Below, piece after piece: positions 6,463 through 57,725 of a stretch of DNA of 64,000 nucleotides. The DNA lies in the IMG/VR virus record IMGVR_UViG_3300011116_001007; one strand, written 5' to 3'. The notes beneath the pieces were generated by a model. That model saw only the letters and a list, made by a program, of their open reading frames with translations, was not told where the DNA came from and ran no database searches. Made by a program: the position numbers and the translations under genes. The stretch comes from a virus. Its lineage: Duplodnaviria; Caudoviricetes. Position 1 is the first letter of the stretch; each line of letters opens with the position of its first letter.

Positions 6463-6802
6463 ACCCGTAACTGAACAAGAATTTTGGAGTATCTTGGCAG
6501 CCATGCCTGAATCTCAACCAGTTTTCTTTAGACTGTATCATGATGATCGCGGGCGTGTATTATTCTACAGCATGGAGGATGTTCCAGGTACATACATTGA
6601 AATTGATGCAGAAACTTTTGCGTTACAGTCCACAAACGTCAGAGTACAAGATGGCCGCCTGGTTGAAGTGGTCTGGATGACCAGTGAAAAACTTCAACCA
6701 ATGGAAACTGGTACACCCTGCCACCCCACAGACATAACCGTAATAGTTTCACCAAACGATCCGCACACCAAATGGAGCAAAAAAACACATGAACAAAATT
6801 GA
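6452..6802 (+). CDS. Hypothetical protein
   Basis: 116-aa ORF overlapping both neighbours. Confidence 0.65.
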   Translation: MSNEPVTEQEFWSILAAMPESQPVFFRLYHDDRGRVLFYSMEDVPGTYIEIDAETFALQSTNVRVQDGRLVEVVWMTSEKLQPMETGTPCHPTDITVIVSPNDPHTKWSKKTHEQN

Positions 6803-8614: not shown

Positions 8615-9558
8615 TCAATCAATACACACTCAGTCTGGCCAATGATAAAATTTGGGCAATTGATCATCTGATAGGATTCTTAGTCCACAATCAAGGTAAA
8701 GATATTGTTTTACATGTTAATCCAGAAGCACACTGTCTATATTCTTGCGGACTATACGCCATATTAGAAAAGTTTCAATTTAACAGTGTGACTATTTTTA
8801 CAAACAATGTACTTGAAACTCATCCAACATATCAAATTAAATATCGTAACATCAATACATTTTTTAGTGATAGTAAAAAATACAATCTGAGTGCGTCTGG
8901 CAAATGGAATGAACAAAAAATATTTGGAGCGTTTTACGGCAGACCCACTGCCAATCGTCTTGGCATTGCCAGTTATCTATACTCAAAATACAACAATCAG
9001 AGCGAAATTCTGCTGGCATCAAGAGTTGATTTAGTTGACAGTCGGGTGACATTTGAATTGGATAAACTGTTTGAATACGACATCGACAGCATGTCGCGTG
9101 TTGCTTATCTAATTGAAAATTTTAATTTTGGTGGAATTGATTACACTCCAATGGGAAATTTGTTTACCTACGATACACCGTTAAACAGTTTGTATGAAAA
9201 TATTCTAGTAGACATCATCAGTGAACCAAATATTAAAGGAAATACATTTTTCCCTACAGAAAAATTAGTAAGGCCGGTGTTGTTGAAAAAACCATTTATT
9301 GCAATGGCTTCAAAAAATTACTTGGAGTATGTACGGCAAATGGGGTTTCATACGTTCAATGAGTTTTGGGACGAAACGTATGATGGATACGAAGGCAGTG
9401 AACGCTACTTAAAAATTTTATCATTAATAAGTACGTTGGCTTCTAAATCAAAAAAAGAATTGTATGATCTTTATAATTTCATGCAGTTTCAAATTGATCA
9501 CAATTACAATTTGATTGTTAATAAATTGTACACCAAAAAAATCACATTGATTAACTAA
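8611..9558 (+). CDS. GT10-like 'TEK-motif' glycosyltransferase-like protein (1 of 6)
   Basis: DIISE...FFPTEKLVRPVLLKKPF...GFHTF..FWDETYD. Confidence 0.5.
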   Translation: MINQYTLSLANDKIWAIDHLIGFLVHNQGKDIVLHVNPEAHCLYSCGLYAILEKFQFNSVTIFTNNVLETHPTYQIKYRNINTFFSDSKKYNLSASGKWNEQKIFGAFYGRPTANRLGIASYLYSKYNNQSEILLASRVDLVDSRVTFELDKLFEYDIDSMSRVAYLIENFNFGGIDYTPMGNLFTYDTPLNSLYENILVDIISEPNIKGNTFFPTEKLVRPVLLKKPFIAMASKNYLEYVRQMGFHTFNEFWDETYDGYEGSERYLKILSLISTLASKSKKELYDLYNFMQFQIDHNYNLIVNKLYTKKITLIN

Positions 9559-9563
9559 CCAGT

Positions 9564-10577
9564 ATGCCTACCACAATTTTTATAACAGGTATTGCAGGAT
9601 TTTTGGGTAGCCACCTAGCTGATCATTTTATCAGACTGGGATATCATGTCAAAGGAAATGATAATTTGATAGGTGGGTGCCAAAGTAATATTCCAGCCAA
9701 AGCAGAGTTTTATAACATCGACTGTAACAACTTGTCAGCATTGACCACTGCAATGACCAATGTAGATATTGTAGTTCATTGTGCTGCCACAGCATATGAA
9801 GGGCTAAGTGTGTTCAGCCCAAGTTTTGTAGTTAATAATGTCATGCAGGCCAGCACAAGTGTAATTTCGTCAGCTATACAAAATAAAGTCAAACGCATAG
9901 TGTATTGCAGCAGTATGGCCAGATACGGCAACCAGAAAACACCGTTTGTTGAGTCAATGACTCCCGCACCTGTTGATCCATACGGCATAGCCAAGGTGGG
10001 TGGGGAATTGATATTAAAAAATTTATGTGACATCAACGGCATTGAGTGGAATATTGCAGTACCACATAACATCATTGGTACTAGACAAAAATACGATGAC
10101 CCATTTCGAAATGTTGTTAGCATTATGATTAATCGATGCTTGCAAAATAAACCGCCGGTGATATACGGCAACGGCACCCAGAAACGATGTTTTTCGTATA
10201 TCGACGACTGCGTGTATTGCTTGATCAAGTTAGTGACTGACACCAACATCACAAGCCAAACTGTAAATATAGGCCCTGATGAAGAATTTGTGACTATTAA
10301 CGAGTTGGCTGCACTTGTGATGGAACTCACAGAGTACAATGGCACCCCGTTGTATGTTAATCCGCGACCACTGGAAGTATCACTTGCTACATGCAGTTCT
10401 GATCTTGCCAGGCAGTTGCTAGACTATAAAACATCAACAACCTTACGCGAAGCAGTAACCCAGACCATGAACGGTATAAAACAATCAGGAGTACGACCGT
10501 TTGATTACAAATTCCCAGTTGAAATTAACAACAGCTTGACTCCGATAACCTGGCATAATGAATACTTTAACAAATAA
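9564..10577 (+). CDS. NAD-dependent epimerase/dehydratase (extended SDR)
   Basis: ITGIAGFLG, SS, YGIAK (YxxxK), RCFSYIDD. Confidence 0.9.
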   Translation: MPTTIFITGIAGFLGSHLADHFIRLGYHVKGNDNLIGGCQSNIPAKAEFYNIDCNNLSALTTAMTNVDIVVHCAATAYEGLSVFSPSFVVNNVMQASTSVISSAIQNKVKRIVYCSSMARYGNQKTPFVESMTPAPVDPYGIAKVGGELILKNLCDINGIEWNIAVPHNIIGTRQKYDDPFRNVVSIMINRCLQNKPPVIYGNGTQKRCFSYIDDCVYCLIKLVTDTNITSQTVNIGPDEEFVTINELAALVMELTEYNGTPLYVNPRPLEVSLATCSSDLARQLLDYKTSTTLREAVTQTMNGIKQSGVRPFDYKFPVEINNSLTPITWHNEYFNK

Positions 10578-11964
10578 TAAAGGTGACGAGTCTGTAGACA
10601 ACAAGAGCCGGTTCCTTAACTCTGCTGAGCAAATGGCAGAGAACCTGGGCCCTGCACTATGTCTTGCCAAATGGAAACAGGTAAGTTTACATTTGCCCAC
10701 TGGATTAAATAACAGTTGCTACCATCCGCCGTTGCACTCTATATCCGTTGAAGATATTGGCCGCAATCCGGCAGCATTACACAATACAGATCATAAAAAA
10801 CAACAACGCAAGTTGATGTTAGCAGGCGAACGTCCAGCAGAGTGTCAGTATTGTTGGAACATGGAAGATCTAAGCAAACTCAGTGATCGACATTATAGAT
10901 CAGGCGAACCCTGGGCAGCAGTGGATTTTGAAAAAATAAAAAACTCAACTGGAGATGAACAAGATGTCGTACCGTCATATGTGGAAGTCAATTTTAACAA
11001 TGCCTGTAACCTTAAATGCAGCTATTGCAGTCCGCAGTTCAGCTCTAGCTGGCAACAAGAAATTGACCGCTACGGTGCCTTTCCTACTTTGGTTCCTCAT
11101 AACGCTCCTGAGCATTTTATCGGCCACCGCAGGCCTATTCCTGCCCGTGATCACAATCCTTACGTAGAAGCATTCTGGGCTTGGTGGCCCAGTCTATATC
11201 CTGAGCTCAAGCATTTCCGAATGACCGGCGGCGAGCCGCTGATGGATCGTAATACCTATCAAGTGTTTGACTATGTGCTGGACCATCCCAAGAGTGACTT
11301 GCATCTAGCTGTGACATCAAACTTCAGTGTAGAGCCCAAACTGTCTACCAAGTATTTTGATTATGTAAAAAGATTGTGCAATACTGATATTGAACATTTC
11401 ATGCAGTATGTGAGCCTTGACTCAGGCATAGGGCCTCAAGCTGAATACATACGCCACGGGTTAGACTTTGCTCGATTGCAGAACAATGTGGAAACATATC
11501 TTCGAGACATTCCATATCGCAACAGTCTCACTTTTATTGTGACCATGAACAATCTGGCAGTGACTGGATTCTTACCATTAATGCAATGGATCTTGGATCT
11601 ACGACGCAGACATAGTCAAACATATCAACGTGTGTGGTTTGATACACCTATACTGCGACAACCTGCCTGGCAAAGCCTACAAACATTGCCCGAAAGCTAT
11701 GCTGCAAAATTGGAACAAGCCCGCGACTTTATGTTGGAGAATCTAGAAACAGACGCTGATCCGTTTCACGGATTCAAAGACTATGAGGTGCAACGACTGG
11801 AACGTGATATTGCCTGGATGCGATCCTCTGCGCCGCAGCCCAGTGCAATGGCAGACTTTGCAAGATTTTTTAACGAACACGATCGCCGCAGAGGTACTGA
11901 CTTCAAGGCCACATTCCCAGAAATGATCACCTGGTGGAAACAATGCGGTCTACATGCTAGGTAA
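10558..11964 (+). CDS. Radical SAM protein with N-terminal Cys-rich (twitch/SPASM-like) domain (1 of 5)
   Basis: CNLKCSYC, TGGEP, CLAKW...CYH...CQYCW. Confidence 0.9.
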   Translation: MNTLTNNKGDESVDNKSRFLNSAEQMAENLGPALCLAKWKQVSLHLPTGLNNSCYHPPLHSISVEDIGRNPAALHNTDHKKQQRKLMLAGERPAECQYCWNMEDLSKLSDRHYRSGEPWAAVDFEKIKNSTGDEQDVVPSYVEVNFNNACNLKCSYCSPQFSSSWQQEIDRYGAFPTLVPHNAPEHFIGHRRPIPARDHNPYVEAFWAWWPSLYPELKHFRMTGGEPLMDRNTYQVFDYVLDHPKSDLHLAVTSNFSVEPKLSTKYFDYVKRLCNTDIEHFMQYVSLDSGIGPQAEYIRHGLDFARLQNNVETYLRDIPYRNSLTFIVTMNNLAVTGFLPLMQWILDLRRRHSQTYQRVWFDTPILRQPAWQSLQTLPESYAAKLEQARDFMLENLETDADPFHGFKDYEVQRLERDIAWMRSSAPQPSAMADFARFFNEHDRRRGTDFKATFPEMITWWKQCGLHAR

Positions 11965-13072
11965 TCACAAAGTCGTTGTGGATGAATGGGCCGAAGTTTG
12001 GGATCTCCTCAAACCCTATGCCGACGGCAGCTTCTGGCGCTGGAGTGATTTAACTCTTGATCCGTCGACTGTGTATATTGTTGGGCGAGTGGTGCTCAAA
12101 GAGAACTGGCAATCCATAACCGAATGGGCACACCAACATCCGGGAAAAATAGTGTTTTGCAATCCTGCTGAAGGATCTCAGACTATATTACTGCAACTGA
12201 AAAGATTGATGATTTCTGAGCAAATCAAATCAGGAGAAATATTGTTGCTGACCTCAGGAGATCTAGAATCTGGGTGGAACTATTGCAAGACTGATTGTTA
12301 TTTTTCCAACATTGTCGAATATCTTGAAAACATTGGCGCACACGAATCTTGGCCGCAAGTGTATCACAAAAAAAACAAACCATATGATTTTTTGTTTTTG
12401 AATGGACGCCTAAGGCCACATCGCAAATATCTAATAGATCAACTACGACAGAAGAAATTATTGGATCGAGCACTGTGGACCAACTTAGGCGAGCAAGTGG
12501 AAATGTCCTGGACCAGCACATTGTTAACCGAATCAAACGAGCCAGTTAGATTGTTGCCCGAGCAGTATGAGATACCTCGTGCCTTACCCAACATGTCAGA
12601 ATTGCCAACAGGATTTGTCAAACATCACCTGTTTGGAAACACCTGGGGCGATGCCATAGTCAATCCTGCGGCCTATGTGGACACGTCGTTTTCGTTGGTA
12701 ACAGAAACCATATTTGATTATCCGCACACATTCCGAACAGAAAAGATCTGGAAGCCCATGATCATGTGTCATCCATTTGTGGTGGCTGCCAACCGCGGCT
12801 ACTATCGAGACCTGCATAATGCAGGGTTTGAAACATTCGGCAACTTGATCGACGAGTCATTTGACCAGATTGACGATCCTACCGATCGTGCCAATAGAGT
12901 GGTTGCAGTTGTGAAAGATATATGCTATAATGGTGCTGAGGCTTTCTTAGAAGCTGCCAGAAGTGCATGTAAATACAACTATCAGCAACTTCGCGATCAC
13001 AACAAACAACAACGTGCTGCTCTGTCAGCTCAACTTGAGATTTATATAAATGCCAACACACACTATAGCTAG
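11954..13072 (+). CDS. GT10-like TEK-motif protein (2 of 6)
   Basis: SLVTET...FRTEKIWKPM...HPF...GFETF..LIDESFD. Confidence 0.5.
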   Translation: MLGNHKVVVDEWAEVWDLLKPYADGSFWRWSDLTLDPSTVYIVGRVVLKENWQSITEWAHQHPGKIVFCNPAEGSQTILLQLKRLMISEQIKSGEILLLTSGDLESGWNYCKTDCYFSNIVEYLENIGAHESWPQVYHKKNKPYDFLFLNGRLRPHRKYLIDQLRQKKLLDRALWTNLGEQVEMSWTSTLLTESNEPVRLLPEQYEIPRALPNMSELPTGFVKHHLFGNTWGDAIVNPAAYVDTSFSLVTETIFDYPHTFRTEKIWKPMIMCHPFVVAANRGYYRDLHNAGFETFGNLIDESFDQIDDPTDRANRVVAVVKDICYNGAEAFLEAARSACKYNYQQLRDHNKQQRAALSAQLEIYINANTHYS

Positions 13073-42242: not shown

Positions 42243-42719
42243 TTAAATGTACCAAATTTCTCGAAATCCTTCTTCCAAAGTGGGCTCTTCCCAATTGGCA
42301 ATCATATGATCAACTACTGCTTCGGGGATTATTTTCCCAGAATCATATCGATTTTGTAGTCGCCGATCCAATTCATCACGCGGCGGTGTACGGAATACCA
42401 CAGCAATGGCATAGTACTCGGGCAACATGTTGAACTTCTTTCGACGACTTGCCGCAGTGGTCGAAGTTTGATCCCACACAATATCTTGACTGGCTTCACG
42501 AGCATGCACTACATCGCCGGTCATGTGCTCCACACATTTGGGCATGACTTCTTTGAAAACTTCGCTGTAGGTCTTGCCTGCACTTTTTGCAAACTCTTCT
42601 ACATAACGATCTGTGGAAATGTATGCAGCTTCTTGCAGCCAAGTTTGATCAGAATGCCAGGTACTTTTTCCACTACCTGGCACTCCAACCAAAACGTACA
42701 ATTTACATTGTCGGTCCAT
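42243..42719 (-). CDS. P-loop kinase (polynucleotide-kinase/AAA_33-like)
   Basis: GVPGSGKST, ISTD, VWDQT..SRRKK. Confidence 0.75.
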   Translation of the reverse strand: MDRQCKLYVLVGVPGSGKSTWHSDQTWLQEAAYISTDRYVEEFAKSAGKTYSEVFKEVMPKCVEHMTGDVVHAREASQDIVWDQTSTTAASRRKKFNMLPEYYAIAVVFRTPPRDELDRRLQNRYDSGKIIPEAVVDHMIANWEEPTLEEGFREIWYI

Positions 42720-43293
42720 TACCGTTCCTAAATCCAATTTCCCCACCTTCTTCAACAATGCGTTTTTGCACATCTTCAAACAAGATAGGAGCAAAGTCTG
42801 TGTGCTCTACACATACACAATGATAGCGTGGATCAACAACCTTGGTCACAAATTCACCAGCAGCAGGCCCTGCCTTCATTACTCTGTTGGCATGCAAGTG
42901 TCCGTGAATGTTCACACCAAAGCGACCCAACGATTCCTCGTGGATGGGTATGTGACTCAAGATCATTCCGTTCATCACATGGTATGCACGTAACTCGCGA
43001 AAGTGTTCACGGTACTCATCATCTCGAAAGATGTCATGATTACCGCGGATCAAAACTTTGTCACCGTTCAACCTACGCATGATACCTAAGGACTTGCGGT
43101 TGATAACAACATCGCCTAAATGGTATACCTTGTCTGTGGGCCGGACACGTTCGTTCCAGGCCTTGACCATGGCCTCGTCCATTTCCTCAGGCGTGTCCCA
43201 AGGACGTAATTTGGTCACACCGTCGTTGCGAGTGAAATGGCACACACCTTTGTGTCCAAAGTGTGTGTCTGATACTAAAAATACTGATGGCAT
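42703..43293 (-). CDS. Calcineurin-like metallophosphoesterase
   Basis: SDTH, LGD, GNHD, SH, HGHLH. Confidence 0.88.
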   Translation of the reverse strand: MPSVFLVSDTHFGHKGVCHFTRNDGVTKLRPWDTPEEMDEAMVKAWNERVRPTDKVYHLGDVVINRKSLGIMRRLNGDKVLIRGNHDIFRDDEYREHFRELRAYHVMNGMILSHIPIHEESLGRFGVNIHGHLHANRVMKAGPAAGEFVTKVVDPRYHCVCVEHTDFAPILFEDVQKRIVEEGGEIGFRNGNGPTM

Positions 43294-43346
43294 AATGTCC
43301 TCTTTGTGTGTATTATACAACAATGAACATTACTGGTCAACCAAAA

Positions 43347-45203: not shown

Positions 45204-45674
45204 TCAGGCTGCTTTCAAACCTTTCAGTCGGTCAGCAGCATACGAAGCAGCAAATGCCTGTGGCTTCACAAAAGGTATCACGTTGCAAGTGCCTTTGATG
45301 TAGCCAATGGCCTGTGAAATAACACAGCTGGATCCGTGCATTTCGTCTGGGTTGATGTCAAGATGTACTTCAACATCACGACCTTCCAGCACGTCGGCCA
45401 GTTTGAGATACAGTTCGGACACCTTGTACACTTCGGTCATGAGACGCATGGCTGGCTTGCCTGGCTTTGCGTCGTACACACGTTCGCGATGTACTTCACC
45501 AAACAGTTTGCATCCGTTGTTGCCGTTGATGTGTACCACAATGGCCAACACATAGTCGGCCCACCATTCACCATCGATCTTGATTCTTTCACTGTCGCAA
45601 CCAATGTAGATACGTGTTTCTGGTGTTTGTGCTTGAATAAATTCAGACACTTGTTTTAAATCTAATTTTTTCAT
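45204..45674 (-). CDS. RNase H-like protein (YkuK/DUF458 type)
   Basis: YIGCDS, E, VHLDIN, terminal AD acidic residues. Confidence 0.7.
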   Translation of the reverse strand: MKKLDLKQVSEFIQAQTPETRIYIGCDSERIKIDGEWWADYVLAIVVHINGNNGCKLFGEVHRERVYDAKPGKPAMRLMTEVYKVSELYLKLADVLEGRDVEVHLDINPDEMHGSSCVISQAIGYIKGTCNVIPFVKPQAFAASYAADRLKGLKAA

Positions 45675-48451: not shown

Positions 48452-49344
48452 TCGTAAATTTTTCTCAAAGTGTTTTGGGCTGAGATTGGTATCAAGTCTT
48501 GATACGATATCTTTACATCATGAGACAAACACAGGAGGGCCAAGTCTCGTGCTCGTGCCCGGGTGCTGTTGTTTTCCAATGACTGCCCTAGTATTATTTC
48601 AACTAAGAAATCATGCTGAATCAGTGCATCGGGATGTGGGTCAGAGTGTACACATTCTAAATATTCTTGTGTACACTGCCGAGCAGTCTTGTACTCCCAT
48701 AGTCCTTGATAAGATTTTGGATCCTGTGGATCCTTTGGTGGCATAAAAAACCGGTTCCAGTCAATAAGAGACAACAGATTGGAAACTGCTGGAATCTTTA
48801 ATATTTCACTTGCAGTGTTCAATTCAATTGAGGAAAGTTGATTGCAACTATCCCAACGATATTTCCAGGAATCAATGGTCACAGTAGGCCTAACATCAAA
48901 CCAAGGATTTTGCCAAAACACCATGTGATAACGACACCCAATCTGATTCAACAGATGTTGGATTTGGTATATGGTAGAAAAATTATCCACGATCATGTGT
49001 GTAAGACTTGTTTCGTGATCAGGGTGTGTGCGATATAATCCGCGCCAGGGCACTGGAGAGCATTCTAGTCTTCCAGCAGCTGGAAAGAATCCTTGACAAT
49101 CGTGCTGATCAACCCAGTCTTGGTCGTACCATGTTGTGACACGATTGCTGCCACTCAGCATGATGATCACAGTATCGTCCTGGGTGATATCTTTTGATCT
49201 TGACAACAGTTCCCAATACTGTGTTTGATTGCTGCGTCCGGGCCAGGCCAGGTTGATAACAGTGTCTGTGGAATATTCGCTCAACCAATCGCTCCAGGTA
49301 TGCCAATACCATTTTGTAAAACTACATCCTAATGTATAAATCAT
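48448..49344 (-). CDS. SGNH-like protein
   Basis: Start MIYTLGCSFT at 49344; NLAWPGRSN; C-terminal DPHP. Confidence 0.55.
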   Translation of the reverse strand: MIYTLGCSFTKWYWHTWSDWLSEYSTDTVINLAWPGRSNQTQYWELLSRSKDITQDDTVIIMLSGSNRVTTWYDQDWVDQHDCQGFFPAAGRLECSPVPWRGLYRTHPDHETSLTHMIVDNFSTIYQIQHLLNQIGCRYHMVFWQNPWFDVRPTVTIDSWKYRWDSCNQLSSIELNTASEILKIPAVSNLLSLIDWNRFFMPPKDPQDPKSYQGLWEYKTARQCTQEYLECVHSDPHPDALIQHDFLVEIILGQSLENNSTRARARDLALLCLSHDVKISYQDLIPISAQNTLRKIYE

Positions 49345-49358
49345 AATGAACTGTCTTT

Positions 49359-49433
49359 TGGTAGCCGGTGATGGTTTCGAACCATCGACCCTCGCCTTAT
49401 CAAGACGATGCTCTCCCCCTGAGCTAACCGGCC
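49359..49433 (-). tRNA. tRNA-Ile(GAT)
   Basis: tcgtc-ttGATaa-ggcga, CCA. Confidence 0.93.
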
Positions 49434-49570
49434 ATGATAATATATAGGTGCTCTCTGCGGCGCTTGAATCCACGGTAGCCCTGCTCTTCCTGGCACTTCT
49501 TCACACGCCGCGGGCTAGTGAAGGTTGGTGTTGTTCCAGTGTAGCTACTACAGAAAGCATTTATATGATA

Positions 49571-49659
49571 ACCATATGGAAACACACTAAAAGTAATCTA
49601 ACATACAAGAGCGCCGTGCGAACGTATGCTAAAAGGTATCTAATGTGTTTGCATATGGT
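49571..49659 (-). repeat. 18-bp-stem hairpin cassette 1 (ACCATAT.x.AAACACA family)
   Basis: Arms 49571-49588 and 49642-49659; one mismatch at stem position 9. Confidence 0.75.
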
Positions 49660-50551
49660 GAAAGGACTGAGAATACATCCTCTCCAACAACACCTCGGAC
49701 ATTATTGTACACCTTGCGAGTATACTTTCTTCCGACTTCCACCCGGCCCTATTTCTAGGTATCCTGGTCTGCTGTCAGCATCGCCGTTTAGAGACAGGCA
49801 GTAGTCTTGACGCTGTATGCTATTCTACGCTTTCTATTCCGTTGACCTTGCGAGCCATTCAAGTGCGCTAACACCTTACGAAACTTCCTGCATAAACTAA
49901 TGTCACCTTGCGAGCTTCATTAGACTTGGTTCTCTTGCGAGCCAAGTATTAGATGCTTTTCACATACAACCGAGTCAGTCTTTGCGTTTTAATCGTTAGA
50001 AGGAGTTGAACCTTCAGTCTATTTCTTAAAAGGAAATCGGCCTACCATTAGCCTATAACTGAACCTACTGCGATGTGCTGACTCAGTTGCTGCATACTCT
50101 TTTGGAATACACAATACAACACACCACGTACCTTTTGTCTTGCGAACTACTCAGTCGTCTTTTGCGATCGGTGTGTCCCCGCCTTTCGACAGACCCACTA
50201 ACCACTCAAACTGCATACGAGCCCTTGGGTGCAACCCCTCGGACAAATACGCTACCCTTTCTCATACTAATTAACTGGACTGGTTTAGTTGTGAAGTCAG
50301 CACCACCTGTTACTTTCCATCGACTCAAGTTCCCCTTGCGGGCTTGTAAATCAACGTTCTTTCCACAACATCCAGCGTCATTGTTACAACCACCGGTCTT
50401 ATCAGTGATCGCTACCTCACGGTAGTGAGCAGGCTTGCTTAAACGAACTATCTCTAGCGGAGTTATGTAGGCATACCTCCTTTGGCTGTGTCACCACAGT
50501 TATTCTTCATAAACCAGCAAGCTGGCTTATAGGACGTTAAACCGCCCTTGA
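49657..50551 (-). ncRNA. ~900-nt large structured RNA, GOLLD-like candidate
   Basis: No credible CDS; own promoter; six C-GCAA-G tetraloops plus other GNRA loops; 5'/3' helix AAGGGC/GTCCTT; embedded tRNA module. Confidence 0.65.
49992..50062 (-). tRNA. tRNA-Lys(TTT)-like module embedded in the large RNA, no encoded CCA
   Basis: ATTTC-ctTTTaa-GAAAT, GAAGG-ttcaact-CCTTC, D arm with AATGGTA; acceptor stem has a bulge. Confidence 0.6.
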
Positions 50552-50557
50552 AATCTT

Positions 50558-50586
50558 ATTGTAGCATCAAAGTTGATCCTTGTCAA
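50558..50586 (-). promoter_or_regulatory. sigma70 promoter TTGACA-17-TACAAT driving the large RNA
   Basis: -35 50586-50581, -10 50563-50558. Confidence 0.75.
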
Positions 50587-50596
50587 CTTGAGTTTT

Positions 50597-50680
50597 ACCA
50601 TATAGAAACACACTAGCCTGCAGGACTACTAATAGCTCACGGGTACGCCGCTACTACTAGGTAATGTGTTTTTATATGGT
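50597..50680 (-). repeat. 18-bp-stem hairpin cassette 2
   Basis: 5' arm starts with the ACCA of tRNA-Lys(TTT); mismatch at position 9. Confidence 0.75.
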
Positions 50681-50752
50681 AGGACCGCCCGGATTCGAAC
50701 CGGGAACTGGCGGATTAAAAGTCCGCTGTGATAACCATTTCACCACGATCCC
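50677..50752 (-). tRNA. tRNA-Lys(TTT)
   Basis: gcgga-ctTTTaa-tccgc, CCA. Confidence 0.93.
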
Positions 50753-50756
50753 ATGT

Positions 50757-50831
50757 TGGTCCCTCTACCGAGATTTGAACTCGGACGTCACGGATTAAGA
50801 GTCCGGCATGCTGCCTTAACATCTTAGAGGG
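50757..50831 (-). tRNA. tRNA-Lys(CTT)
   Basis: ccgga-ctCTTaa-tccgt, CCA. Confidence 0.88.
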
Positions 50832-50925
50832 TTGGTATGTAAAATTGTCTTTCACGTGCCAACCCGGACCTACATGGGATCTGGATTGACACTAGCGTTT
50901 AGCACGTTTCATGTCATGTTTCCTT

Positions 50926-51186
50926 TTAAATGTGTTCTTTGTTGAGTCGAGCTCGAGCCGCAGTAGCAAATTCGCTAAAGTTGCCGCACTTGTCTTCCCA
51001 CCGCAACATACTACGGCAAGTGTAACTGATGTCACGCTTGTTCAAGCATACTGCTTCTTGATTGAGTTCACCGTTGACATACACACGGCAGTGATAGTTG
51101 CCGTCAATATTGCGAACAGTTACTTCGTGATCTACTTCGCCCAGGATACAACGCTGGATGCGAACTAGTTGTTTGTATCGTTCCAT
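50926..51186 (-). CDS. Hypothetical protein
   Basis: Start MERYKQ after AAAGGAG SD. Confidence 0.65.
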   Translation of the reverse strand: MERYKQLVRIQRCILGEVDHEVTVRNIDGNYHCRVYVNGELNQEAVCLNKRDISYTCRSMLRWEDKCGNFSEFATAARARLNKEHI

Positions 51187-51205
51187 ACGTTCTCCTTTGA
51201 AAAAT

Positions 51206-51279
51206 TGGTGCCCCACGACAGAATCGAACTGCCATCACAGGATTACAAAACCAGTGTACTGCCATTGTACTAGTAGGGC
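51206..51279 (-). tRNA. tRNA-Thr(TGT), imperfect anticodon stem
   Basis: Loop ttTGTaa, T-T mismatches in stem, CCA. Confidence 0.8.
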
Positions 51280-51286
51280 GTGATTG

Positions 51287-51451
51287 TTAGGATGTCTTTG
51301 ATCTTTTGTCTATAGCACGTTGAATCTTGGCTCGGTGCTTGGGCCTGGCACTCTCCAACATCTTGGTGAGTTGAGCAACATTCAGCGGTCCCAGTCTGGG
51401 TTTGCCACTGTGATGCTTCATGGGATCGTTGCTTGTGTTAAATGATGACAT
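51287..51451 (-). CDS. 54-aa basic protein (MSSFNTSNDPMKHHSGKPRLGPLN...), not in ORF track
   Basis: AGGA SD, ATG 51451, TAA 51287. Confidence 0.5.
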   Translation of the reverse strand: MSSFNTSNDPMKHHSGKPRLGPLNVAQLTKMLESARPKHRAKIQRAIDKRSKTS

Positions 51452-51470
51452 TTTGTTTCCTAAATTAAAT

Positions 51471-51546
51471 TGGCTCCTCAGCGTGGGATCGAACCACGGA
51501 CATCTTGATTAACAGTCAAGTGCAACTACCGCTGTGCTACTGAGGA
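51471..51546 (-). tRNA. tRNA-Asn(GTT)
   Basis: cttga-ctGTTaa-tcaag, CCA. Confidence 0.93.
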
Positions 51547-51553
51547 ATAAACT

Positions 51554-51643
51554 TGGCGGAACGACTGAGACTCGAACTCAGAACCCGGATTACGCCGAGC
51601 GACAGATTAGCAATCTGCTCTAATACCATTATAGGACCGTTCC
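51554..51643 (-). tRNA. tRNA-Ser(GCT)
   Basis: gcaga-ttGCTaa-tctgt, long variable arm, GCCA. Confidence 0.92.
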
Positions 51644-51683
51644 GTGAAAATACTTATGCTGTATCGACAGCATATAAAAAACT

Positions 51684-51757
51684 TGGCGTACCCACTAGGA
51701 CTCGAACCTAGACTGACGGTTTTGGAGACCGCGATGCTGCCATTACACTATGGATAC
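51684..51757 (-). tRNA. tRNA-Trp(CCA)
   Basis: gcggt-ctCCAaa-accgt, GCCA. Confidence 0.92.
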
Positions 51758-51760
51758 ACA

Positions 51761-51835
51761 TGGTGGTTGTGGTTGGCATCGATCCAACCTCCTCGCCTTA
51801 TGAGGGCGGTACGCATCCATCTACGTCACACAACC
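51761..51835 (-). tRNA. tRNA with CAT anticodon (Met or Ile2), atypical T loop ATCGATG
   Basis: ctCATaa loop, GGTTGTG/CACAACC acceptor, CCA. Confidence 0.8.
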
Positions 51836-51840
51836 AAAAC

Positions 51841-51917
51841 TGGGGTGTCTGATGGGGATCGAACCCACGCATGTCGGAATCACAACCCGAGGCCTTAACC
51901 ACTTGGCGACAGACACC
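51841..51917 (-). tRNA. tRNA-His(GTG)
   Basis: tcggg-ttGTGat-tccga, G-1 opposite C73, CCA. Confidence 0.93.
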
Positions 51918-51927
51918 ATATAACAAA

Positions 51928-52004
51928 TGGTACCACCTGAGAGATTCGAACTCCCAACCCCCGGATTCGTAATCCAGTGCTCTATCCAATTGAGCCAAGG
52001 CGGT
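51928..52004 (-). tRNA. tRNA-Arg(ACG)
   Basis: ctgga-ttACGaa-tccgg, CCA. Confidence 0.92.
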
Positions 52005-52053
52005 AAAAAACTGTCCAGGGACGAAGCCGTCAAAGGGCTGTATGGACTTGACT

Positions 52054-52131
52054 TGGAGTAGCGGGTGAGATTTGAACTCACGGTTTTTGGGATTTGCAAT
52101 CCCATGCATTGGGCCACTCTGCCACCGCTAC
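52054..52131 (-). tRNA. tRNA-Cys(GCA)
   Basis: tggga-ttGCAaa-tccca, U73, CCA. Confidence 0.93.
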
Positions 52132-52138
52132 ATGTTGT

Positions 52139-52214
52139 TGGTGCAACCTGTAGGAATCGAACCTACTTCAACGGCTCTTCAGGCCGCCGCTATGACCACA
52201 TCAGCTAAAGTTGC
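52139..52214 (-). tRNA. tRNA-Phe(GAA)
   Basis: gcggc-ctGAAga-gccgt, CCA. Confidence 0.9.
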
Positions 52215-52215
52215 T

Positions 52216-52289
52216 TGGCAGGGACACTAGGGATCGAACCTAGGCTAACAGAGTCAAAGTCTGTTGTGCTACCATTACACAATGTCCCA
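52216..52289 (-). tRNA. tRNA-Gln(TTG)
   Basis: acaga-ctTTGac-tctgt, GCCA. Confidence 0.9.
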
Positions 52290-52296
52290 ACAAAAC

Positions 52297-52372
52297 TGGT
52301 GGAGGATAACGGATTCGAACCGTTTGCTCCTGGTTGCAAACCAGGTGTGTTAGCCAAGTATACCAATCCCCC
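52297..52372 (-). tRNA. tRNA-Ala(TGC)
   Basis: cctgg-ttTGCaa-ccagg, G3:U70, CCA. Confidence 0.93.
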
Positions 52373-52476
52373 GAAAAAAACACAACATAGACGCTCTGCT
52401 ACTGGGCAGACTAGGATTACGCCTTCTATGTTGTTTTGTATAGAGGTGCCGTAATCGAAGCTCTCTATACAATAAC

Positions 52477-52560
52477 TGGTGGAGACAGATGGATTCGAAC
52501 CACCGCGCTATTAAGAACAGATTTACAGTCTGTCGCAATCGACCACTCTGCCATGTCTCC
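52477..52560 (-). tRNA. tRNA-Tyr(GTA)
   Basis: acaga-ctGTAaa-tctgt, variable arm, CCA. Confidence 0.93.
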
Positions 52561-52784
52561 AAAATTGTTACACACTCTTGCGAATGTGTGTATTAAAACA
52601 GACTGTATGCTGTGGGAATAACATTTCTGTCAAGCGACCAGCAACGGATACGCAATCTGTTTTAATACGCTCGGATTTTTTTATGTACAAGAACATAAGC
52701 CATCCCCGAGGCCGCCCGTTTGCCCATGTTTTAAGTGCAGGCTAGGTCCACGTTACCTATTCACACTATTCAACTCTACAAAAT

Positions 52785-52814
52785 GAAAAACCCCGGAGTT
52801 TTTAGTTCCGGGGT
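52785..52814 (-). terminator. Intrinsic terminator of attenuator-like unit 1
   Basis: ACCCCGGA/TCCGGGGT stem followed by TTTTC ATTTT. Confidence 0.75.
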
Positions 52815-52839
52815 CCTTTTGGGTATGTCTTGATACTTG

Positions 52840-52965
52840 TTACAGTATATGACTCCTCAAGGACCCGCGGGCTCCTGGAAATGTATTCACGCGACCATAG
52901 CCACGCGCCCAGGTACTTGCCTGATGCATGGGTTTAATCAACAGTGAACAGATTTGCGTTTTCAT
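52840..52965 (-). CDS. 41-aa putative leader peptide 1 (MKTQICSLLIKPMHQASTWARGYGRVNTFPGARGSLRSHIL)
   Basis: ATG 7 nt after the -10 box of promoter 52973-53001; overlaps the antiterminator strand. Confidence 0.5.
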   Translation of the reverse strand: MKTQICSLLIKPMHQASTWARGYGRVNTFPGARGSLRSHIL

Positions 52966-52972
52966 AGTATCA

Positions 52973-53001
52973 ATTATACGTTATATATCTTAAGAAGTCA
53001 A
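52973..53001 (-). promoter_or_regulatory. sigma70 promoter TTGACT-17-TATAAT
   Basis: Near-consensus boxes, exact spacer. Confidence 0.8.
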
Positions 53002-53046
53002 CCTCTTAAAATATCTTGTGTTGTATTTATACAACACAGGTTAAAA

Positions 53047-53125
53047 TGGATGCGGAGGATGGATTTGAACCACCGATCTGAAGCTTATGAGACTTCCGGG
53101 GACGACCGAACTCCCCCACTCCGCT
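53047..53125 (-). tRNA. tRNA-Met(CAT), initiator-like 1:72 mismatch
   Basis: gaagt-ctCATaa-gcttc, A1:A72 mismatch, CCA; lacks the three G-C anticodon-stem pairs. Confidence 0.8.
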
Positions 53126-53184
53126 GCATGTATTTATCTAGTATAACACCATTGTTTTTAGTGGTCAACTGATTTTGGTAAAAT

Positions 53185-53276
53185 TGGCGGAAGACGGAGG
53201 AGTCGAACCCCATCCCTGTTAAGAGAACCTGGTTTTCAAGGCCAGTCGCAGGACCATCCCCGCTGCATCATCTTCC
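53185..53276 (-). tRNA. tRNA-Ser(TGA)
   Basis: ctggc-ctTGAaa-accag, long variable arm, GCCA. Confidence 0.9.
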
Positions 53277-53281
53277 TGAAT

Positions 53282-53366
53282 TGGTACGAGTGGCCGGACT
53301 CGAACCGGCACGCCATTACGACCTCAGATTTTAAGTCTGATGCGGCTACCATTACGCCACACTCGC
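53282..53366 (-). tRNA. tRNA-Leu(TAA)
   Basis: tcaga-ctTAAaa-tctga, variable arm, CCA. Confidence 0.93.
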
Positions 53367-53375
53367 TTTTTTGAT

Positions 53376-53451
53376 TGGTGCCCCAGGGGAGACTCGAACT
53401 CCCAGAATTTGGTTTCTAAGACCAACATGGCTACCGTTACATCACCGGGGC
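53376..53451 (-). tRNA. tRNA-Leu(TAG), short variable loop
   Basis: ttggt-ctTAGaa-accaa, CCA; no variable arm. Confidence 0.85.
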
Positions 53452-53456
53452 TGATA

Positions 53457-53679
53457 TTGAATTTGCAAGTAGTAGCACCACACTATTGCTACCATTCCCC
53501 CGAATTAACAAGCTCGAGCGGGGTTCGGTACGTCACTTGGGATACAGGTCCAGTACAGTCTCCGTTGCAGACCTCCGCAGTTGCCCGCGGGTGGGAGTTG
53601 AACCCATTAACCTTCTACTATAAAGTACCTTCGAAGAATACAGTATAGCGTGACTTTCTCTTGCTGACACTTACAAAAC
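53457..53679 (-). ncRNA. T-arm-containing ncRNA family, copy A
   Basis: Shares five sequence blocks and the terminal stem with 54495..54680. Confidence 0.65.
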
Positions 53680-53771
53680 TGGGCCTCTGAGAGTGGAATT
53701 GAACCACCAAGGTTTTTGGAACCTTTTTGACCTACTAGTAAGGACGACTTTACCGATTCGTCTACTCAGAG
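53680..53771 (-). tRNA. Degenerate type-II tRNA-like element with central CTA (amber-like) triplet
   Basis: CTCTGAG/CTCAGAG acceptor, GAC-gaatcggtaaa-GTC D arm, loop taCTAgt, AAGGTT/AACCTT variable arm, GGTGG-ttcaatt-CCACT T arm, CCA. Confidence 0.55.
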
Positions 53772-53777
53772 ATAACT

Positions 53778-53851
53778 TGGTGTGTGGGGGTGGGTTCGCT
53801 CACCCTTTCACTGACATACATCAGCACCGTCACTAATCCGGCTCTCACACA
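53778..53851 (-). ncRNA. tRNA-shaped mimic with degenerate loops, CCA end
   Basis: TGTGTG/CACACA acceptor, GCCG/CGGT, GCTGA/TCAGT and GGGTG/CACCC arms; no TTC. Confidence 0.5.
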
Positions 53852-53856
53852 TAAAA

Positions 53857-53899
53857 GGTGGATAACAGATGCCGTAGCATCCGCTTCTCCATAACTTGG
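53857..53899 (-). repeat. 43-bp direct repeat, also at 54683-54725 (2 mismatches)
   Basis: GGTGGATAACAGATGCCG(T/C)AGCA(T/C)CCGCTTCTCCATAACTTGG; follows tRNA-Asp and tRNA-Glu respectively. Confidence 0.85.
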
Positions 53900-53971
53900 C
53901 GGTCTCAAGGGGTAACGATCCCCTTCTTCAACAGTGACAGTGTTGTGTGCGTCCATGAACACTTTGAGACC
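53897..53971 (-). tRNA. tRNA-Asp(GTC), atypical T loop ATCGTTA
   Basis: caaca-ctGTCac-tgttg, GCCA. Confidence 0.85.
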
Positions 53972-54165
53972 AAATAAGGACAAGCTACTGGTTTCCACAC
54001 CAGCCCTTGATTGAGCGGTTACTCTGTCCATCTTTTTTATCTGGTATCTGTGTGCAGAAAGATAACTGCCTATCAGATTCAGGATTGCTCCGCTAACGGT
54101 CTTCTGCCACCGGACCTCTATCGCTAGTCAAACGCTACTTTAACGAAAGTAGTAACGGGATTCTT

Positions 54166-54280
54166 ACCATATAGGAACACACTACGTATCTTAGTCACGT
54201 GTAGTTTTGGAGGGCTACACTACAGACCCAAATAGTTAGACCGCGAATCTAACCCAACCTGGAGTATGTTCTTATATGGC
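54166..54280 (-). repeat. 18-bp-stem hairpin cassette 3
   Basis: Arms 54166-54183 and 54263-54279; 5' arm begins with the CCA of the upstream tRNA mimic. Confidence 0.7.
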
Positions 54281-54353
54281 AAACTCATTGCGGACAGGAT
54301 TCGAACCTGCATCACCCACTAAGGGCATCCTAACCACTAGAAGACCGCGAGTT
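54277..54353 (-). ncRNA. tRNA mimic with truncated anticodon arm and bulged, extended acceptor stem
   Basis: D loop CTAGTGGTT, GCCC-ttagt-GGGT, GCAGG-ttcgaat-CCTGT, AACTC-GCGG/CCGC-aat-GAGTT, GCCA. Confidence 0.55.
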
Positions 54354-54401
54354 CCTGAGGGCAATTACTCCCCAGCACGGATGCTACCTGCAGATAACAT
54401 T

Positions 54402-54484
54402 ACCATATAGGAACACACTTTAGTAAGCCCTACGCATCCGACAAAGTTGTCACGCATCCAAAGCAAAATGTGTTTTTATATAAT
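54402..54484 (-). repeat. 18-bp-stem hairpin cassette 4
   Basis: ATTATATAAAAACACATT / AGTGTGTTCCTATATGGT, G-U pairs at the base. Confidence 0.7.
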
Positions 54485-54494
54485 ACCATATAAA

Positions 54495-54680
54495 TTGAAT
54501 TTGTAAGTAGCAGCACCTCACTCATTGCTACCATTCTACCTGTATTTTCTGTGAAGCCGCGGACAGGATAGAGGTACGTAGTAATAGTAGCTACTTAGCA
54601 GTTGCCATGTTGCCGGACTCGAACCGTTGCCTCATAAGGTTTTCGACGCCTTACTTTCACTACATCTACACTTACAAAAC
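54495..54680 (-). ncRNA. T-arm-containing ncRNA family, copy B
   Basis: See copy A; T arm CGG-TTCGAGT-CCG. Confidence 0.65.
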
Positions 54681-54722
54681 TTGGTGGATAACAGATGCCG
54701 CAGCACCCGCTTCTCCATAACT

Positions 54723-54797
54723 TGGTAGAGCATAGCGGAGTCGAACCGCTCTTAGTGGACTGAAAACCCACTGTCCTAACCGATAGACGAATGCTCC
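54723..54797 (-). tRNA. tRNA-Glu(TTC)
   Basis: gtggg-ttTTCag-tccac, CCA. Confidence 0.9.
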
Positions 54798-54803
54798 ATG
54801 ATT

Positions 54804-55041
54804 CACTATATGAAAACACAATTATACAGGAACTTTGCTGATAAAATCTAATCTAGCTATGATTAGACCAATCGCCGTCATTACTGCCTACCTGTTTCGT
54901 CTTCCTCATCTTCATGGCCTAAGCCACTGATTCAGCATCTTGTAAGTGGAGGAGTAGCCAGCCACGGCGGGGCTCAAACCCATAATCCTATCACTCACCT
55001 AACGATGTAGGTAACCTGTATAATTGTGTTTACATATAGTG
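54804..55041 (-). repeat. Hairpin cassette 5 with 27-bp arms enclosing 184 nt
   Basis: CACTATATG(A/T)AAACACAATTATACAGG inverted repeat at 54804-54830 and 55015-55041. Confidence 0.8.
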
Positions 55042-55267
55042 CTCAGAACTGAATCTGAGTACACTATACAAAATCAAATTTTTAACGAACTTGCTGCACT
55101 GTGTCGATGCACTGTGCTGCTTTCTAACTAGTCTCTAGTATAACACCAAGTGCGATACTGGTCAACCGGTTTTGTAAAGCCCTACAATTTGGAAGGACTT
55201 TACAAATCTTGCTGTTTTTCCCTACTTGCCGCTATTGTAGCAGTTGGGCAATTAGTGGTCAACCACC

Positions 55268-55294
55268 AAAAAAAAACCCGCCTAGTTGGCGGGT
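55268..55294 (-). terminator. Intrinsic terminator of attenuator-like unit 2
   Basis: ACCCGCC-aacta-GGCGGGT followed by a long T run. Confidence 0.8.
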
Positions 55295-55316
55295 CTTTCG
55301 TGAAATTTGTGTAGTA

Positions 55317-56866: not shown

Positions 56867-57124
56867 TTAGAGTTCCTTTAGGTTAATGAAATTTATGCCG
56901 GACATTGTCAGTTCGACGACATGGTGTACTGCGCCTCTCATCACAATTGGATTGTCTCCAATCATAACTGGTGGGAAAATACTGTTCCTGAAACGGTTCG
57001 GTTTTATCCGCTTTTGTTTCATAGTCATCAAGTTGTTTTTTGTCTTGCATACATATATAACGCGGTAGCCCAGCATCACGTTGACACAAGCCAAAAAGAA
57101 ACCCGCCAAAGCGGGTTCTGAATT

Positions 57125-57410
57125 TCTGTTACGAGGTATGTCTTACCCTAAGCGGCGTTTAGGCTGCTAATGCGAACAGTTCGTCGTTTGCGTTTATAGA
57201 TTTTCTTCTTTTTACAAGGTTGCTCTTGTGCTGTCCACTCTGTTACTCTTTACTCTGTCGAAACCAGGGCAGGCCCATCAAAAGAACTATCGACTAACAT
57301 TCCCCCACATACTGCATTTCTGGTGTGGCTAATGCAAAAGTTCTTTTGGTGGACCTGGCGGGAGTCGAACCCGCGTCCAGAACACTTTTCTCTTTGCTTC
57401 ATACAGCAAT
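57125..57410 (-). ncRNA. ssrA: Circularly permuted (two-piece) tmRNA; tag ANDELFALAA at 57159-57191
   Basis: Acceptor piece GCGGG-TTCGACT-CCCGC-CAGGTCC-ACCA (ends 57347) lies upstream of the coding piece starting GGGCCTG...TTCGAC (57276); terminator 57094-57120. Confidence 0.88.
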
Positions 57411-57419
57411 AACTTTTAT

Positions 57420-57725
57420 TTATCGTTGATAGCAATTACGCTCACGGTAAATCTGACCATCCGGCATCTGAATTTCTCTCCACGCTGTGCAAATGGTCTG
57501 GGGTTGTGGTACAATCACTTGCTCACGTTGAACCACAACTGGTTGTGGCTGGTTAGCATTGGCAATTACTGCTCCAGCAATACCACCAATGATCAATGGG
57601 CCAATCCAGTCATTTCTTTGTTCAACAATAACAGGTCGGTTGTCCCAATGTCGATGATCATGACGCCATTGTGCTTGGGCTGCGGTTGCTGCTAGTAATG
57701 CAATTACCAATAATACTTTTTTCAT
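57420..57725 (-). CDS. Secreted/membrane small protein
   Basis: Signal peptide, GGIAGAVIA helix; AGGAG SD. Confidence 0.7.
   Translation of the reverse strand: MKKVLLVIALLAATAAQAQWRHDHRHWDNRPVIVEQRNDWIGPLIIGGIAGAVIANANQPQPVVVQREQVIVPQPQTICTAWREIQMPDGQIYRERNCYQR

Follow-up and report, generated by a model that had tools for sequence, protein, structure and literature searches.

Constant-stem, variable-insert hairpins between the tRNA genes of freshwater phages

The tRNA cluster of phage T4 encodes two small stable RNAs, rnaC and rnaD (species 1 and 2), whose role is still unknown (PMC3014915). Both are non-coding and encoded on the tRNA strand, immediately after T4 tRNA-Arg; CCA forms the end of one, a T arm is present in the other, and 50 years of knowing them have brought no function to light. 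A constant stem with a changing module is known from the Y RNAs (YrlA/Yrn1), whose paired ends form an extended, conserved stem acting as a handle for protein, whose remaining part is variable and sometimes tRNA-like, and which occur as several paralogues per genome (PMC4201824). YrlA RNAs carry the Rsr-binding motif GNCGAAN0-1G near the 5′ end (PMC4201824). In polycistronic tRNA transcripts, RNase P together with 3′ trimming downstream of the encoded CCA is the established maturation route (PMC2190699). Here we analyze hairpins located between tRNA genes in a 64,000-nucleotide stretch of the IMG/VR virus record IMGVR_UViG_3300011116_001007 (hereafter, the window). Five of them, at positions 49571-55041, share a conserved stem, called the clamp stem below, that encloses unrelated inserts. 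They had been noted in an initial annotation of the window, made from the sequence alone.

The nearest precedent in kind for these hairpins is T4 rnaC/rnaD, and the nearest in design is the Y RNAs. With the T4 RNAs they share the absence of coding capacity, the strand and the place directly behind a tRNA; rnaC and rnaD differ from them in having no common terminal stem, no clamp fold and no design of constant stem and variable insert. With the Y RNAs they share the terminal stem, the variable module and the paralogues, but Y RNAs are not fused to tRNA ends. We found no description of the stem in the literature on phage tRNA arrays, GOLLD, T4 rnaC/rnaD, BUCT-ZZ01, S-CRM01 and tRNA-cluster processing. 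The clamp-stem hairpins are apparently a widespread and previously undescribed family of phage small RNAs between tRNA genes.

The five hairpins and their family

The minus strand carries every RNA gene of the region. When hairpin arms were sought with the motif ACCATATRNAAACACA at up to 3 mismatches, 17 matches were obtained against 7.05 expected, and 0 of 100 shuffles reached 17. Ten good arm matches formed five inverted pairs, all within 49571-55041, and none lay elsewhere in the 102,964-base IMG/VR contig that carries the window, which CheckV rates as ~30% of a genome. All ten arms of the five annotated hairpins were thus found in place. On the minus strand, each pair folds as 5′-ACCAUAUxxAAACACAUUN ... 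NAGUGUGUUUxxAUAUGGU-3′, and the fold z-scores against shuffled sequence were -8.3, -4.7, -4.2 and -2.7 for copies 1-4. The conserved stem reported initially is real, but its length is 19 bp rather than 18, and copy 5 extends it to 27 bp. None of the five copies pairs position 9 (C.C, A.C, A.C, A.C and U.U in copies 1-5). The compensatory changes noted before were also seen, namely U-A at position 3 of copy 5, A-U or G-C at position 8 among the copies, and the G-U change of copy 4, which appears as U.G pairs at positions 2-3. The five inserts are unrelated, as had been stated, each belonging to a different similarity cluster.

An IMG/VR scan with the exact pattern ACCATATNNNAACACAYT returned at least 119 loci, and plus/minus arm pairs, counted when the two arms were 50-300 nt apart, occur in 94 of the 119 loci among the matches listed. 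These loci are tRNA arrays: 1423 tRNAs were found in 93 of 120 sources (the 119 listed loci and the window). A second set of 80 loci, gathered through a co-located protein, added 66 hairpins to the 164 of the first set, so that both sets together hold at least 230 hairpins on 132 loci, with the stem consensus ACCAUAU-NN-AAACACAUUN / NAGUGUGUUU-NN-AUAUGGU. Hairpin orientation is always the same as that of the tRNAs. Complete carrier records measure 162 to 367 kb, and complete genomes have 1-5 copies each, all within the tRNA array and beside 25-35 tRNAs. As a negative control, the same pattern gave isolated single matches in 596 Gb of bacterial and archaeal genomes, the exception being one 1.5-kb contig of a Planktophila metagenome-assembled genome, which marks the element as phage-specific. 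Some arrays negative by the pattern have stems that keep the outer box and differ in the inner one, so that the family extends beyond what the pattern captures. The window's DNA itself was contained in sequencing runs from river, lake and sediment samples. These counts, together with 144 clusters of inserts (see below), support the initial view of a dispersed RNA-level module with constant stem and variable insert, and the stem, whose conservation in relatives had been named as a check on that view, is kept in many related phages.

The pairing of the stem was counted on the 164 hairpins of the first set, oriented by their neighbouring tRNAs. Positions 1, 3 and 12-15 together showed 95 G.U against 7 A.C. 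Position 17 was U.G in 112 hairpins, C-G in 34 and U-A in 17, and never C.A; position 8 was A-U in 71, U-A in 69 and G-C in 14; and position 19 showed all four Watson-Crick types. Positions 8, 17 and 19 covary. At position 9, G-C (63) and A.C (58) were followed by A-U (16), C.A (8), C.C (8) and U.U (6), so that it is paired in half the family. The unpaired position 9 described for the window is therefore not invariant, and the position is a mismatch hot spot. Positions 8-9 vary even between hairpins with an identical insert. The stem, with the 5′-arm consensus ACCAUAUNNAAACACAUU, is best viewed as a pair of conserved boxes, ACCAUAU/AUAUGGU and AAACACAUU/AGUGUGUUU, parted by a free 2-bp window at positions 8-9. 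The carriers themselves are diverged, with a median pairwise identity of 40-70% in co-located protein families, and the fact that both boxes are kept among phages with neighbouring proteins of no more than this similarity implies a sequence-specific partner. The G+C content was 51% in inserts and 28% in arms.

When 34 hairpins whose inserts are unrelated were aligned, 95.4% of the cells paired, compared with 28-57% when the partner arm is slid. Six pairs show double changes, and the covariation score was 0.212 versus 0.111 in shuffled alignments, a value that 0 of 500 shuffles reached. A covariance model built from this alignment, R1, scored the minus strand of the window copies 8-16 bits above the plus strand. 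These data show that the helix is selected in a single strand of the tRNA sense.

The five copies, all on the minus strand, differ in their surroundings. Copy 1 (49571-49659) has the 19-bp stem with C.C at position 9, a 51-nt insert, a minimum free energy of -36.5 and R1 scores of 61 bits on the minus and 46 bits on the plus strand; its ACCA comes directly after the GOLLD RNA 3′ end, and its insert family covaries with loci L111, L106 and L009. Copy 2 (50597-50680), with A.C at position 9 and a 46-nt insert, scored 63.5 bits (54 on the plus strand). Its first four bases are A73-C74-C75-A76 of tRNA-Lys(UUU), and its insert occurs also in L025 and L276, there with other bases at positions 8-9. 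Copy 3 (54166-54280; 42.5 bits) starts with GCCA, has a branched insert of 77 nt with a homologue in L076, and stands behind a tRNA-like RNA with a T arm. Copy 4 (54402-54484; 42 bits) starts with AUUA, its two U.G pairs being those mentioned above; A.C occurs at positions 9 and 10, and the 45-nt insert has a homologue in L122. It lies directly behind a lone stretch resembling a 3′ arm (54485-54500). Copy 5 (54804-55041), of a long type, has a 27-bp stem and an insert of ~184-200 nt, and is the first RNA of a block starting with tRNA-Glu; each of its eleven homologues lies 2-8 nt ahead of tRNA-Glu or tRNA-Asp.

None of the families in Rfam covers the hairpins, as judged by cmscan of 49300-55300 at the gathering score and at E up to 5. 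Nothing useful came from BLAST comparisons of the region, or of a single hairpin, with 50,697 records of cultured phages, although the low-complexity filter may hide the A/U-rich arms, and R1 found no match in the T4 tRNA region. A cultured carrier was reached via a protein search. Synechococcus phage BUCT-ZZ01 (ON615601) has an array of 27 tRNAs and a permuted transfer-messenger RNA (tmRNA), in which R1 matched L329:7957-8045 (30 bits, E 2e-5), three bases downstream of tRNA-Lys(UUU), and L329:2519-2627. The BUCT-ZZ01 copies are diverged, with R1 scores of 20-30 bits. The same array also has a CUA tRNA; its permuted tmRNA (L329:14068-14486) encodes the tag ANDETFSMALAA, and the recorded host is Synechococcus elongatus.

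Junctions, inserts and RNA-library contigs

The hairpins are joined precisely to their neighbours. The 4-nt overlap with the upstream tRNA is exact in 82 of 164 hairpins of the first set and in 123 of 230 in both sets, and the 123 attached to tRNAs called by ARAGORN all read NCCA (109 ACCA, 13 GCCA and 1 UCCA), in agreement with the earlier remark that the upstream CCA is buried in a duplex. Hairpins without a preceding tRNA follow a small helix ending in ACCA, a tRNA-like RNA with a T arm, the GOLLD 3′ end, or another hairpin, tandem hairpins being spaced 0-1 nt. Behind such non-tRNAs, the start relaxes to ACUA, AUUA or GCUA and is still paired through U.G. Units of helix plus ACCA often precede clamp hairpins elsewhere, as in L056, L083 and L094 (gccgg-attttgtaa-ccggc-a, then ACCA). 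The GOLLD 3′ end precedes a hairpin in both GOLLD loci, the window and L111. Two copies had been described as bracketing the GOLLD RNA; in the window, copy 2 indeed stands at its 5′ side and copy 1 at its 3′ side, but in L111, the one other GOLLD locus seen, of these two hairpins only that on the 3′ side recurs.

Downstream, 59 hairpins share their last 2-3 bases with the start of the following tRNA, usually the GGU... of tRNA-Met(CAU) or tRNA-His, and a further 44 lie 0-8 nt ahead of a tRNA. Since the ACCA belongs to the upstream RNA, the hairpin proper extends from U5 to U(-1). The geometry of the junctions places the natural cut points after A76 and before G1 of the next tRNA, offset by 1 bp in the duplex, which does not match the 2-nt 3′ overhang of RNase III; a cut of RNase III type sharing the lower of the two points would give the upstream tRNA one U too many. 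The RNase P site is preceded by U, the residue that bacterial RNase P prefers before its cleavage site.

Among the 123 tRNA-attached hairpins, 69 follow tRNA-Lys(UUU), which corresponds to 62% of the 111 such genes in the loci, 16 follow tRNA-Glu(UUC) and 7 follow tRNA-Gln(UUG), and tRNA-Lys(CUU) precedes a hairpin in 0 of 34 genes. Lys(UUU), Glu(UUC) and Gln(UUG) are the three mnm5s2U34 tRNAs, the classic targets of anticodon nucleases. The link between tRNA-Lys and the hairpin persists with different downstream neighbours, and 54 insert clusters were found behind tRNA-Lys.

The 230 hairpins form 144 insert clusters, 88 of which are singletons. One slot may hold many inserts (13 types in Lys>Met and 13 in Lys>His), and identical inserts are found behind different tRNAs, e.g., Glu or Pro, and Thr or Tyr. 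Matches between inserts were always in the sense orientation (256 sense, 0 antisense), inversion never being seen. Insert length is typically 40-70 nt (median 50 nt, interquartile range 41-69); only 5 of 216 inserts measure 15 nt or less, with loops of 3-12 nt, indicating that a sizeable insert is maintained. The median fold z-score of the inserts was -0.5, with 13% below -2. In the insert family of copy 5, two inner helices show 4-6 compensatory changes each among the eleven homologues; in that of copy 1, the basal helix is kept with one compensatory swap and the apical part differs between members. A common insert architecture was rejected, the topologies ranging from one to six hairpins. 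A T-arm-like stem-loop occurs in 14 of 211 inserts. Inserts as tRNA fragments were likewise rejected (3 of 203 resemble tRNA in sequence), as were inserts as mimics of the tRNA-Lys anticodon loop, because CUUUUAR was not enriched and 7-nt loops like that of an anticodon stem-loop were essentially only T loops. The proposal that inserts be checked for complementarity to phage mRNAs led to no hit: the window inserts, considered as possible antisense to genes of the phage itself, matched the remainder of the 103-kb contig no better than chance.

Expression was examined in assembled contigs of four metatranscriptome runs. The copy-5 insert is covered at 99-100% identity by RNA-library contigs in three runs (54791-55007, 54818-54975 and 54822-55011); two of them end on the inner boundary of the canonical 3′ arm or slightly inside it, and the canonical 5′ arm stays uncovered in all three. 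A relative's GOLLD contig of depth 468 ends at ~49661-49664, within a few bases of where copy 1 starts. One relative's contig keeps the arms of copy 1 around a different insert (99 nt vs 60 nt), and in another relative's contig 89 other letters replace copy 1, GOLLD, copy 2 and tRNA-Lys(UUU). The contigs fit transcription, processing near the stem and insert exchange. In the abundant GOLLD contig of a relative, 65 other letters replace the tRNA-Lys-like module (49991-50062), so that the module embedded in GOLLD seems exchangeable too. By far the highest summed contig depth in two lake metatranscriptomes (~6,000-12,000) was found in the bins 53521-53721 and 53923-54123, a depth that may partly stem from conserved tRNA-like sequence of other organisms.

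Diverged members and neighbouring RNAs

Two diverged copies exist in the window beyond the five first noted, both on the minus strand. The sixth member (52590-52668) heads a block beginning with tRNA-Tyr and has a 16-bp stem, GUAUUAAAACAGAUUG / CAGUCUGUUUUAAUAC, without the ACCA/UGGU extension; R1 matched 52591-52667 at model positions 5-80 (28 bits, E 8e-5), and the fold z-score was -5.3. Directly behind it, at 52570-52589 (minus strand), the inner box of the clamp is closed by a tetraloop into a mini-hairpin, ACACAUUC-GCAA-GAGUGUGU. The composite of sixth member and mini-hairpin occurs in at least 25 related loci, where the loop-closing pairs covary. The seventh member (49436-49570), in tandem behind copy 1, touches tRNA-Ile(GAU) and has the stem AUCAUAUAA-AUGCUUUCUG / CAGAGAGCAC-CUAUAUAUUAU, which opens into an internal loop at the counterpart of positions 9-10; the insert shares 82% identity with that of hairpin L067:1745.

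ARAGORN called 33 tRNAs between 43.9 and 58.6 kb of the window. The GOLLD RNA with its embedded tRNA-Lys-like module (49664-50590, minus strand) was recognized by Rfam RF02032 with 202 bits over 49664-50127, and its 5′ limit at ~50590 is an estimate. Next to copy 2 lies tRNA-Lys(UUU) (50677-50752, minus strand), whose A73-CCA forms base pairs 1-4 of that copy. The tRNA-like RNA with a T arm (54281-54400, minus strand), missed by ARAGORN, runs into copy 3 with its end ...AAUGAGUUU-GCCA, a junction that recurs in L072 and L013, and tRNA-Glu(UUC) (54723-54797, minus strand) lies 6 nt downstream of copy 5.

Several other RNAs of the array were observed. A 16-nt inverted repeat (94% complementary; 50747-50762 / 50866-50881), whose downstream arm overlaps the first bases of tRNA-Lys(UUU), brackets tRNA-Lys(CUU) (50757-50831); this long-range leader/trailer stem encloses an entire tRNA and is not the clamp stem. 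An unannotated RNA of ~200 nt that contains a T arm is present twice, at 53457-53680 and 54490-54680, and small helices ending in ACCA lie at 53856-53896 and 54682-54722, directly behind tRNA-Asp and tRNA-Glu, all four on the minus strand. At 53680-53772 (minus strand), ARAGORN assigned the label Pyl to a 93-nt tRNA whose anticodon is CUA and which may be an amber suppressor. A tRNA-Sec-like Rfam match at 53189-53276 (minus strand) stayed below threshold (36.8 bits vs a cut-off of 47). The window also encodes a permuted (two-piece) tmRNA at 57068-57439 (minus strand) with the tag ANDELFALAA; this tag and that of BUCT-ZZ01 resemble betaproteobacterial ones, although the recorded host of BUCT-ZZ01 is a Synechococcus. 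Group I introns (Rfam, 57-64 bits) lie within the tRNA arrays of related phages at L017:6941-7138 and L009:926-1123.

The genes commonest beside the hairpins encode a calcineurin-type phosphoesterase, a PF04308 RNase H-like protein, HNH-type proteins and an RpoZ-like protein. In the window, the PF04308 (DUF458, RNase H-like) gene (45204-45674, minus strand) lies inside the tRNA array and the phosphoesterase gene (42706-43323, minus strand) at its edge; the two stand beside clamp hairpins in 23 and 24 of 96 loci, respectively, and relatives of PF04308 are encoded on at least 407 viral contigs. PF04308 as an obligate partner was rejected, because three complete genomes with hairpins lack it; a canonical hairpin was present within the flanks of only 41 of 80 PF04308 loci. 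Some loci scored hairpin-negative carry diverged stems, which makes the presence/absence profile unsafe.

Proposed nature of the hairpins

We see about an even chance that the hairpins are genes for phage small RNAs, excised by tRNA-processing enzymes and equipped with a shared sequence-specific handle. The clamp-stem RNAs would be transcribed within the polycistronic precursor of the tRNA array, and the tRNA-maturation machinery of the host would define their ends: cleavage by RNase P before the next tRNA would leave ...AUAU-3′, and maturation of the CCA end of the upstream tRNA would free 5′-UAU.... The product would be a tRNA-sized RNA with both ends locked in a helix of 15-16 bp and hence exonuclease-resistant. 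Until the cut, the helix would hide the upstream CCA, mainly that of tRNA-Lys(UUU), tRNA-Glu(UUC) and tRNA-Gln(UUG). A sequence-specific partner, a protein or nuclease, would read the stem, and the inserts would be the variable working parts. A host factor is most likely the reader.

Several points weigh against this proposal. Cleavage by RNase P is usually slower when a structured leader adjoins the site, and excision by the standard enzymes is therefore an assumption. The RNA-library contigs show neither RNA ends nor strand. Most inserts are not unusually stable, and many could be passengers. The bias toward tRNA-Lys(UUU) is confounded by the shared ancestry of the arrays. In a partner search with positive controls in 23 large phage records (12 at least 90% complete), RNase III, TROVE/Ro60 (PF05731; absent also from the window contig) and Y1 transposase (PF01797) were all absent, and PF04308, present in 16 of the 23, is missing from three complete hairpin-carrying genomes. 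Finally, G.T pairs also stabilize single-stranded DNA, and the strand asymmetry alone is therefore no proof of RNA; strict co-orientation with transcription, fusion to RNA ends and the RNA contigs make RNA the simpler reading.

It is somewhat unlikely, in our estimate, that the stem is a cis-acting element that processes or insulates the flanking tRNAs (a double-strand RNase site of host RNase III or Mini-III type, or a 3′-trailer hairpin that sequesters the CCA and determines in which order maturation proceeds), with the inserts as passengers. Its exact fusion to the CCA on one side and to the start of the following tRNA on the other would suit this role; the five hairpins with a loop of only 3-12 nt imply that the stem can stand alone, the inner-box mini-hairpin is kept upstream of tRNAs, the folds of most inserts are no more stable than those of shuffled sequences, 88 of the 144 insert clusters are singletons, and the RNA contigs over copy 5 cover the insert and hardly the canonical arms. 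However, only 2% of the hairpins are without a sizeable insert, and deletion would shrink neutral loops; some inserts keep covarying helices across phages, orientation is strict, and most tRNAs of the same arrays mature without such a stem. RNase III stems (the stalks of rRNA operons, the R sites of phage T7) and Mini-III sites resemble the clamp in being long duplexes in polycistronic precursors that join the flanks of an excised RNA; T7 R sites have a common shape with an internal loop, and the 19-bp clamp stem, often extended by insert helices, forms continuous double-stranded RNA of ~two helical turns, as at such sites. The clamp stem differs from them in its near-invariant sequence, which a generic double-strand RNase site does not need, in the 1-bp offset of the cuts and in enclosing diverse RNAs instead of bracketing one product. 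The RNase III-like site that the initial annotation had suggested is possible, but nothing favours it in particular; RNase III is encoded in 0 of the 23 large records. A rather unlikely reading takes the clamp stem as the constant handle of a modular RNA display with swappable effector inserts (decoys, aptamers or antisense loops), tied by its attachment to tRNA-Lys(UUU), tRNA-Glu(UUC) and tRNA-Gln(UUG) to anticodon-nuclease defences such as PrrC or PARIS. One partner, a host or phage protein, would recognize both boxes, and the inserts would turn over fast because they take part in the conflict between phage and host. Anticodon nucleases prefer mnm5s2U34 tRNAs, and the 54 insert types behind tRNA-Lys(UUU), the maintained insert length and the strict orientation are compatible with such a display.

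An element acting at the DNA level, either mobile and resembling a miniature inverted-repeat transposable element or REPIN (with a transposase or homing endonuclease) or an attC-like site for tRNA cassettes, the arms being enzyme sites, is improbable. REPIN/BIME and attC are likewise imperfect inverted repeats with conserved ends, a variable centre and unpaired bases that fold as a single strand, and the frequent arm mismatch is as in attC. Identical inserts behind different tRNAs, the relatives with an exchanged insert or the 89-letter replacement, and the HNH-type genes common in the arrays also fit a DNA element, as does the G.T asymmetry if the folded strand is DNA. Against this stand the strict co-orientation with the tRNAs (position 17 gives 112 to 0), the low copy number of 1-5 per complete genome confined to tRNA arrays, the insert never being inverted between its inverted arms, the absence of RAYT/Y1 transposases from the 23 records, and the outer 4 bp, which follow the CCA of the upstream RNA and are thus a feature of an RNA 3′ end. 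The attC boxes RYYYAAC ... GTTRRRY are absent from the arm consensus, including the R-box consensus GTTRRRY. Highly improbable are phage Y RNAs in which the stem would be a Ro60/Rsr binding site, as in YrlA with its tRNA-mimicking second domain. The layout of terminal stem, variable module and several paralogues is the same, a T-arm-like stem-loop is present in 14 of 211 inserts, and YrlA RNAs occur in phages (PMC4201824). We rejected this reading since an Rfam match to Y_RNA or YrlA at E up to 5, the motif GNCGAAN0-1G in the stem and a TROVE gene, usually a neighbour of Y RNA genes, were all missing from the material searched; a host Ro60 is possible despite the lack of a phage TROVE gene. 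A small self-cleaving ribozyme of the theta or hatchet type was rejected as well. According to Kienbeck et al. 2024, HDV-like (hepatitis delta virus-like) theta ribozymes reportedly lie directly 3′ of phage tRNAs and are implicated in tRNA 3′-end formation, a position shared by the clamp. The conserved bases of the clamp differ from those of theta ribozymes in lying all in a plain Watson-Crick helix around an interior that is not conserved, and the lack of a conserved unpaired core or pseudoknot makes a ribozyme unlikely; Rfam gave no ribozyme match.

If the hairpins are small RNA genes, a large group of phages from fresh water, whose genomes range from 160 kb up to jumbo size, would express a family of tRNA-sized RNAs from tRNA arrays that are usually read as lists of tRNAs. 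For annotation, the gain is an RNA family without an Rfam entry and a calibrated model, R1, to find it. A natural scaffold that tolerates inserts of 3-210 nt is also of practical interest for engineering. The family poses a testable question, namely what reads the stem, and a cultured carrier exists in BUCT-ZZ01 on S. elongatus PCC 7942. Its link to tRNA-Lys(UUU) connects it with a tRNA that is central to anticodon-nuclease defence and counter-defence.

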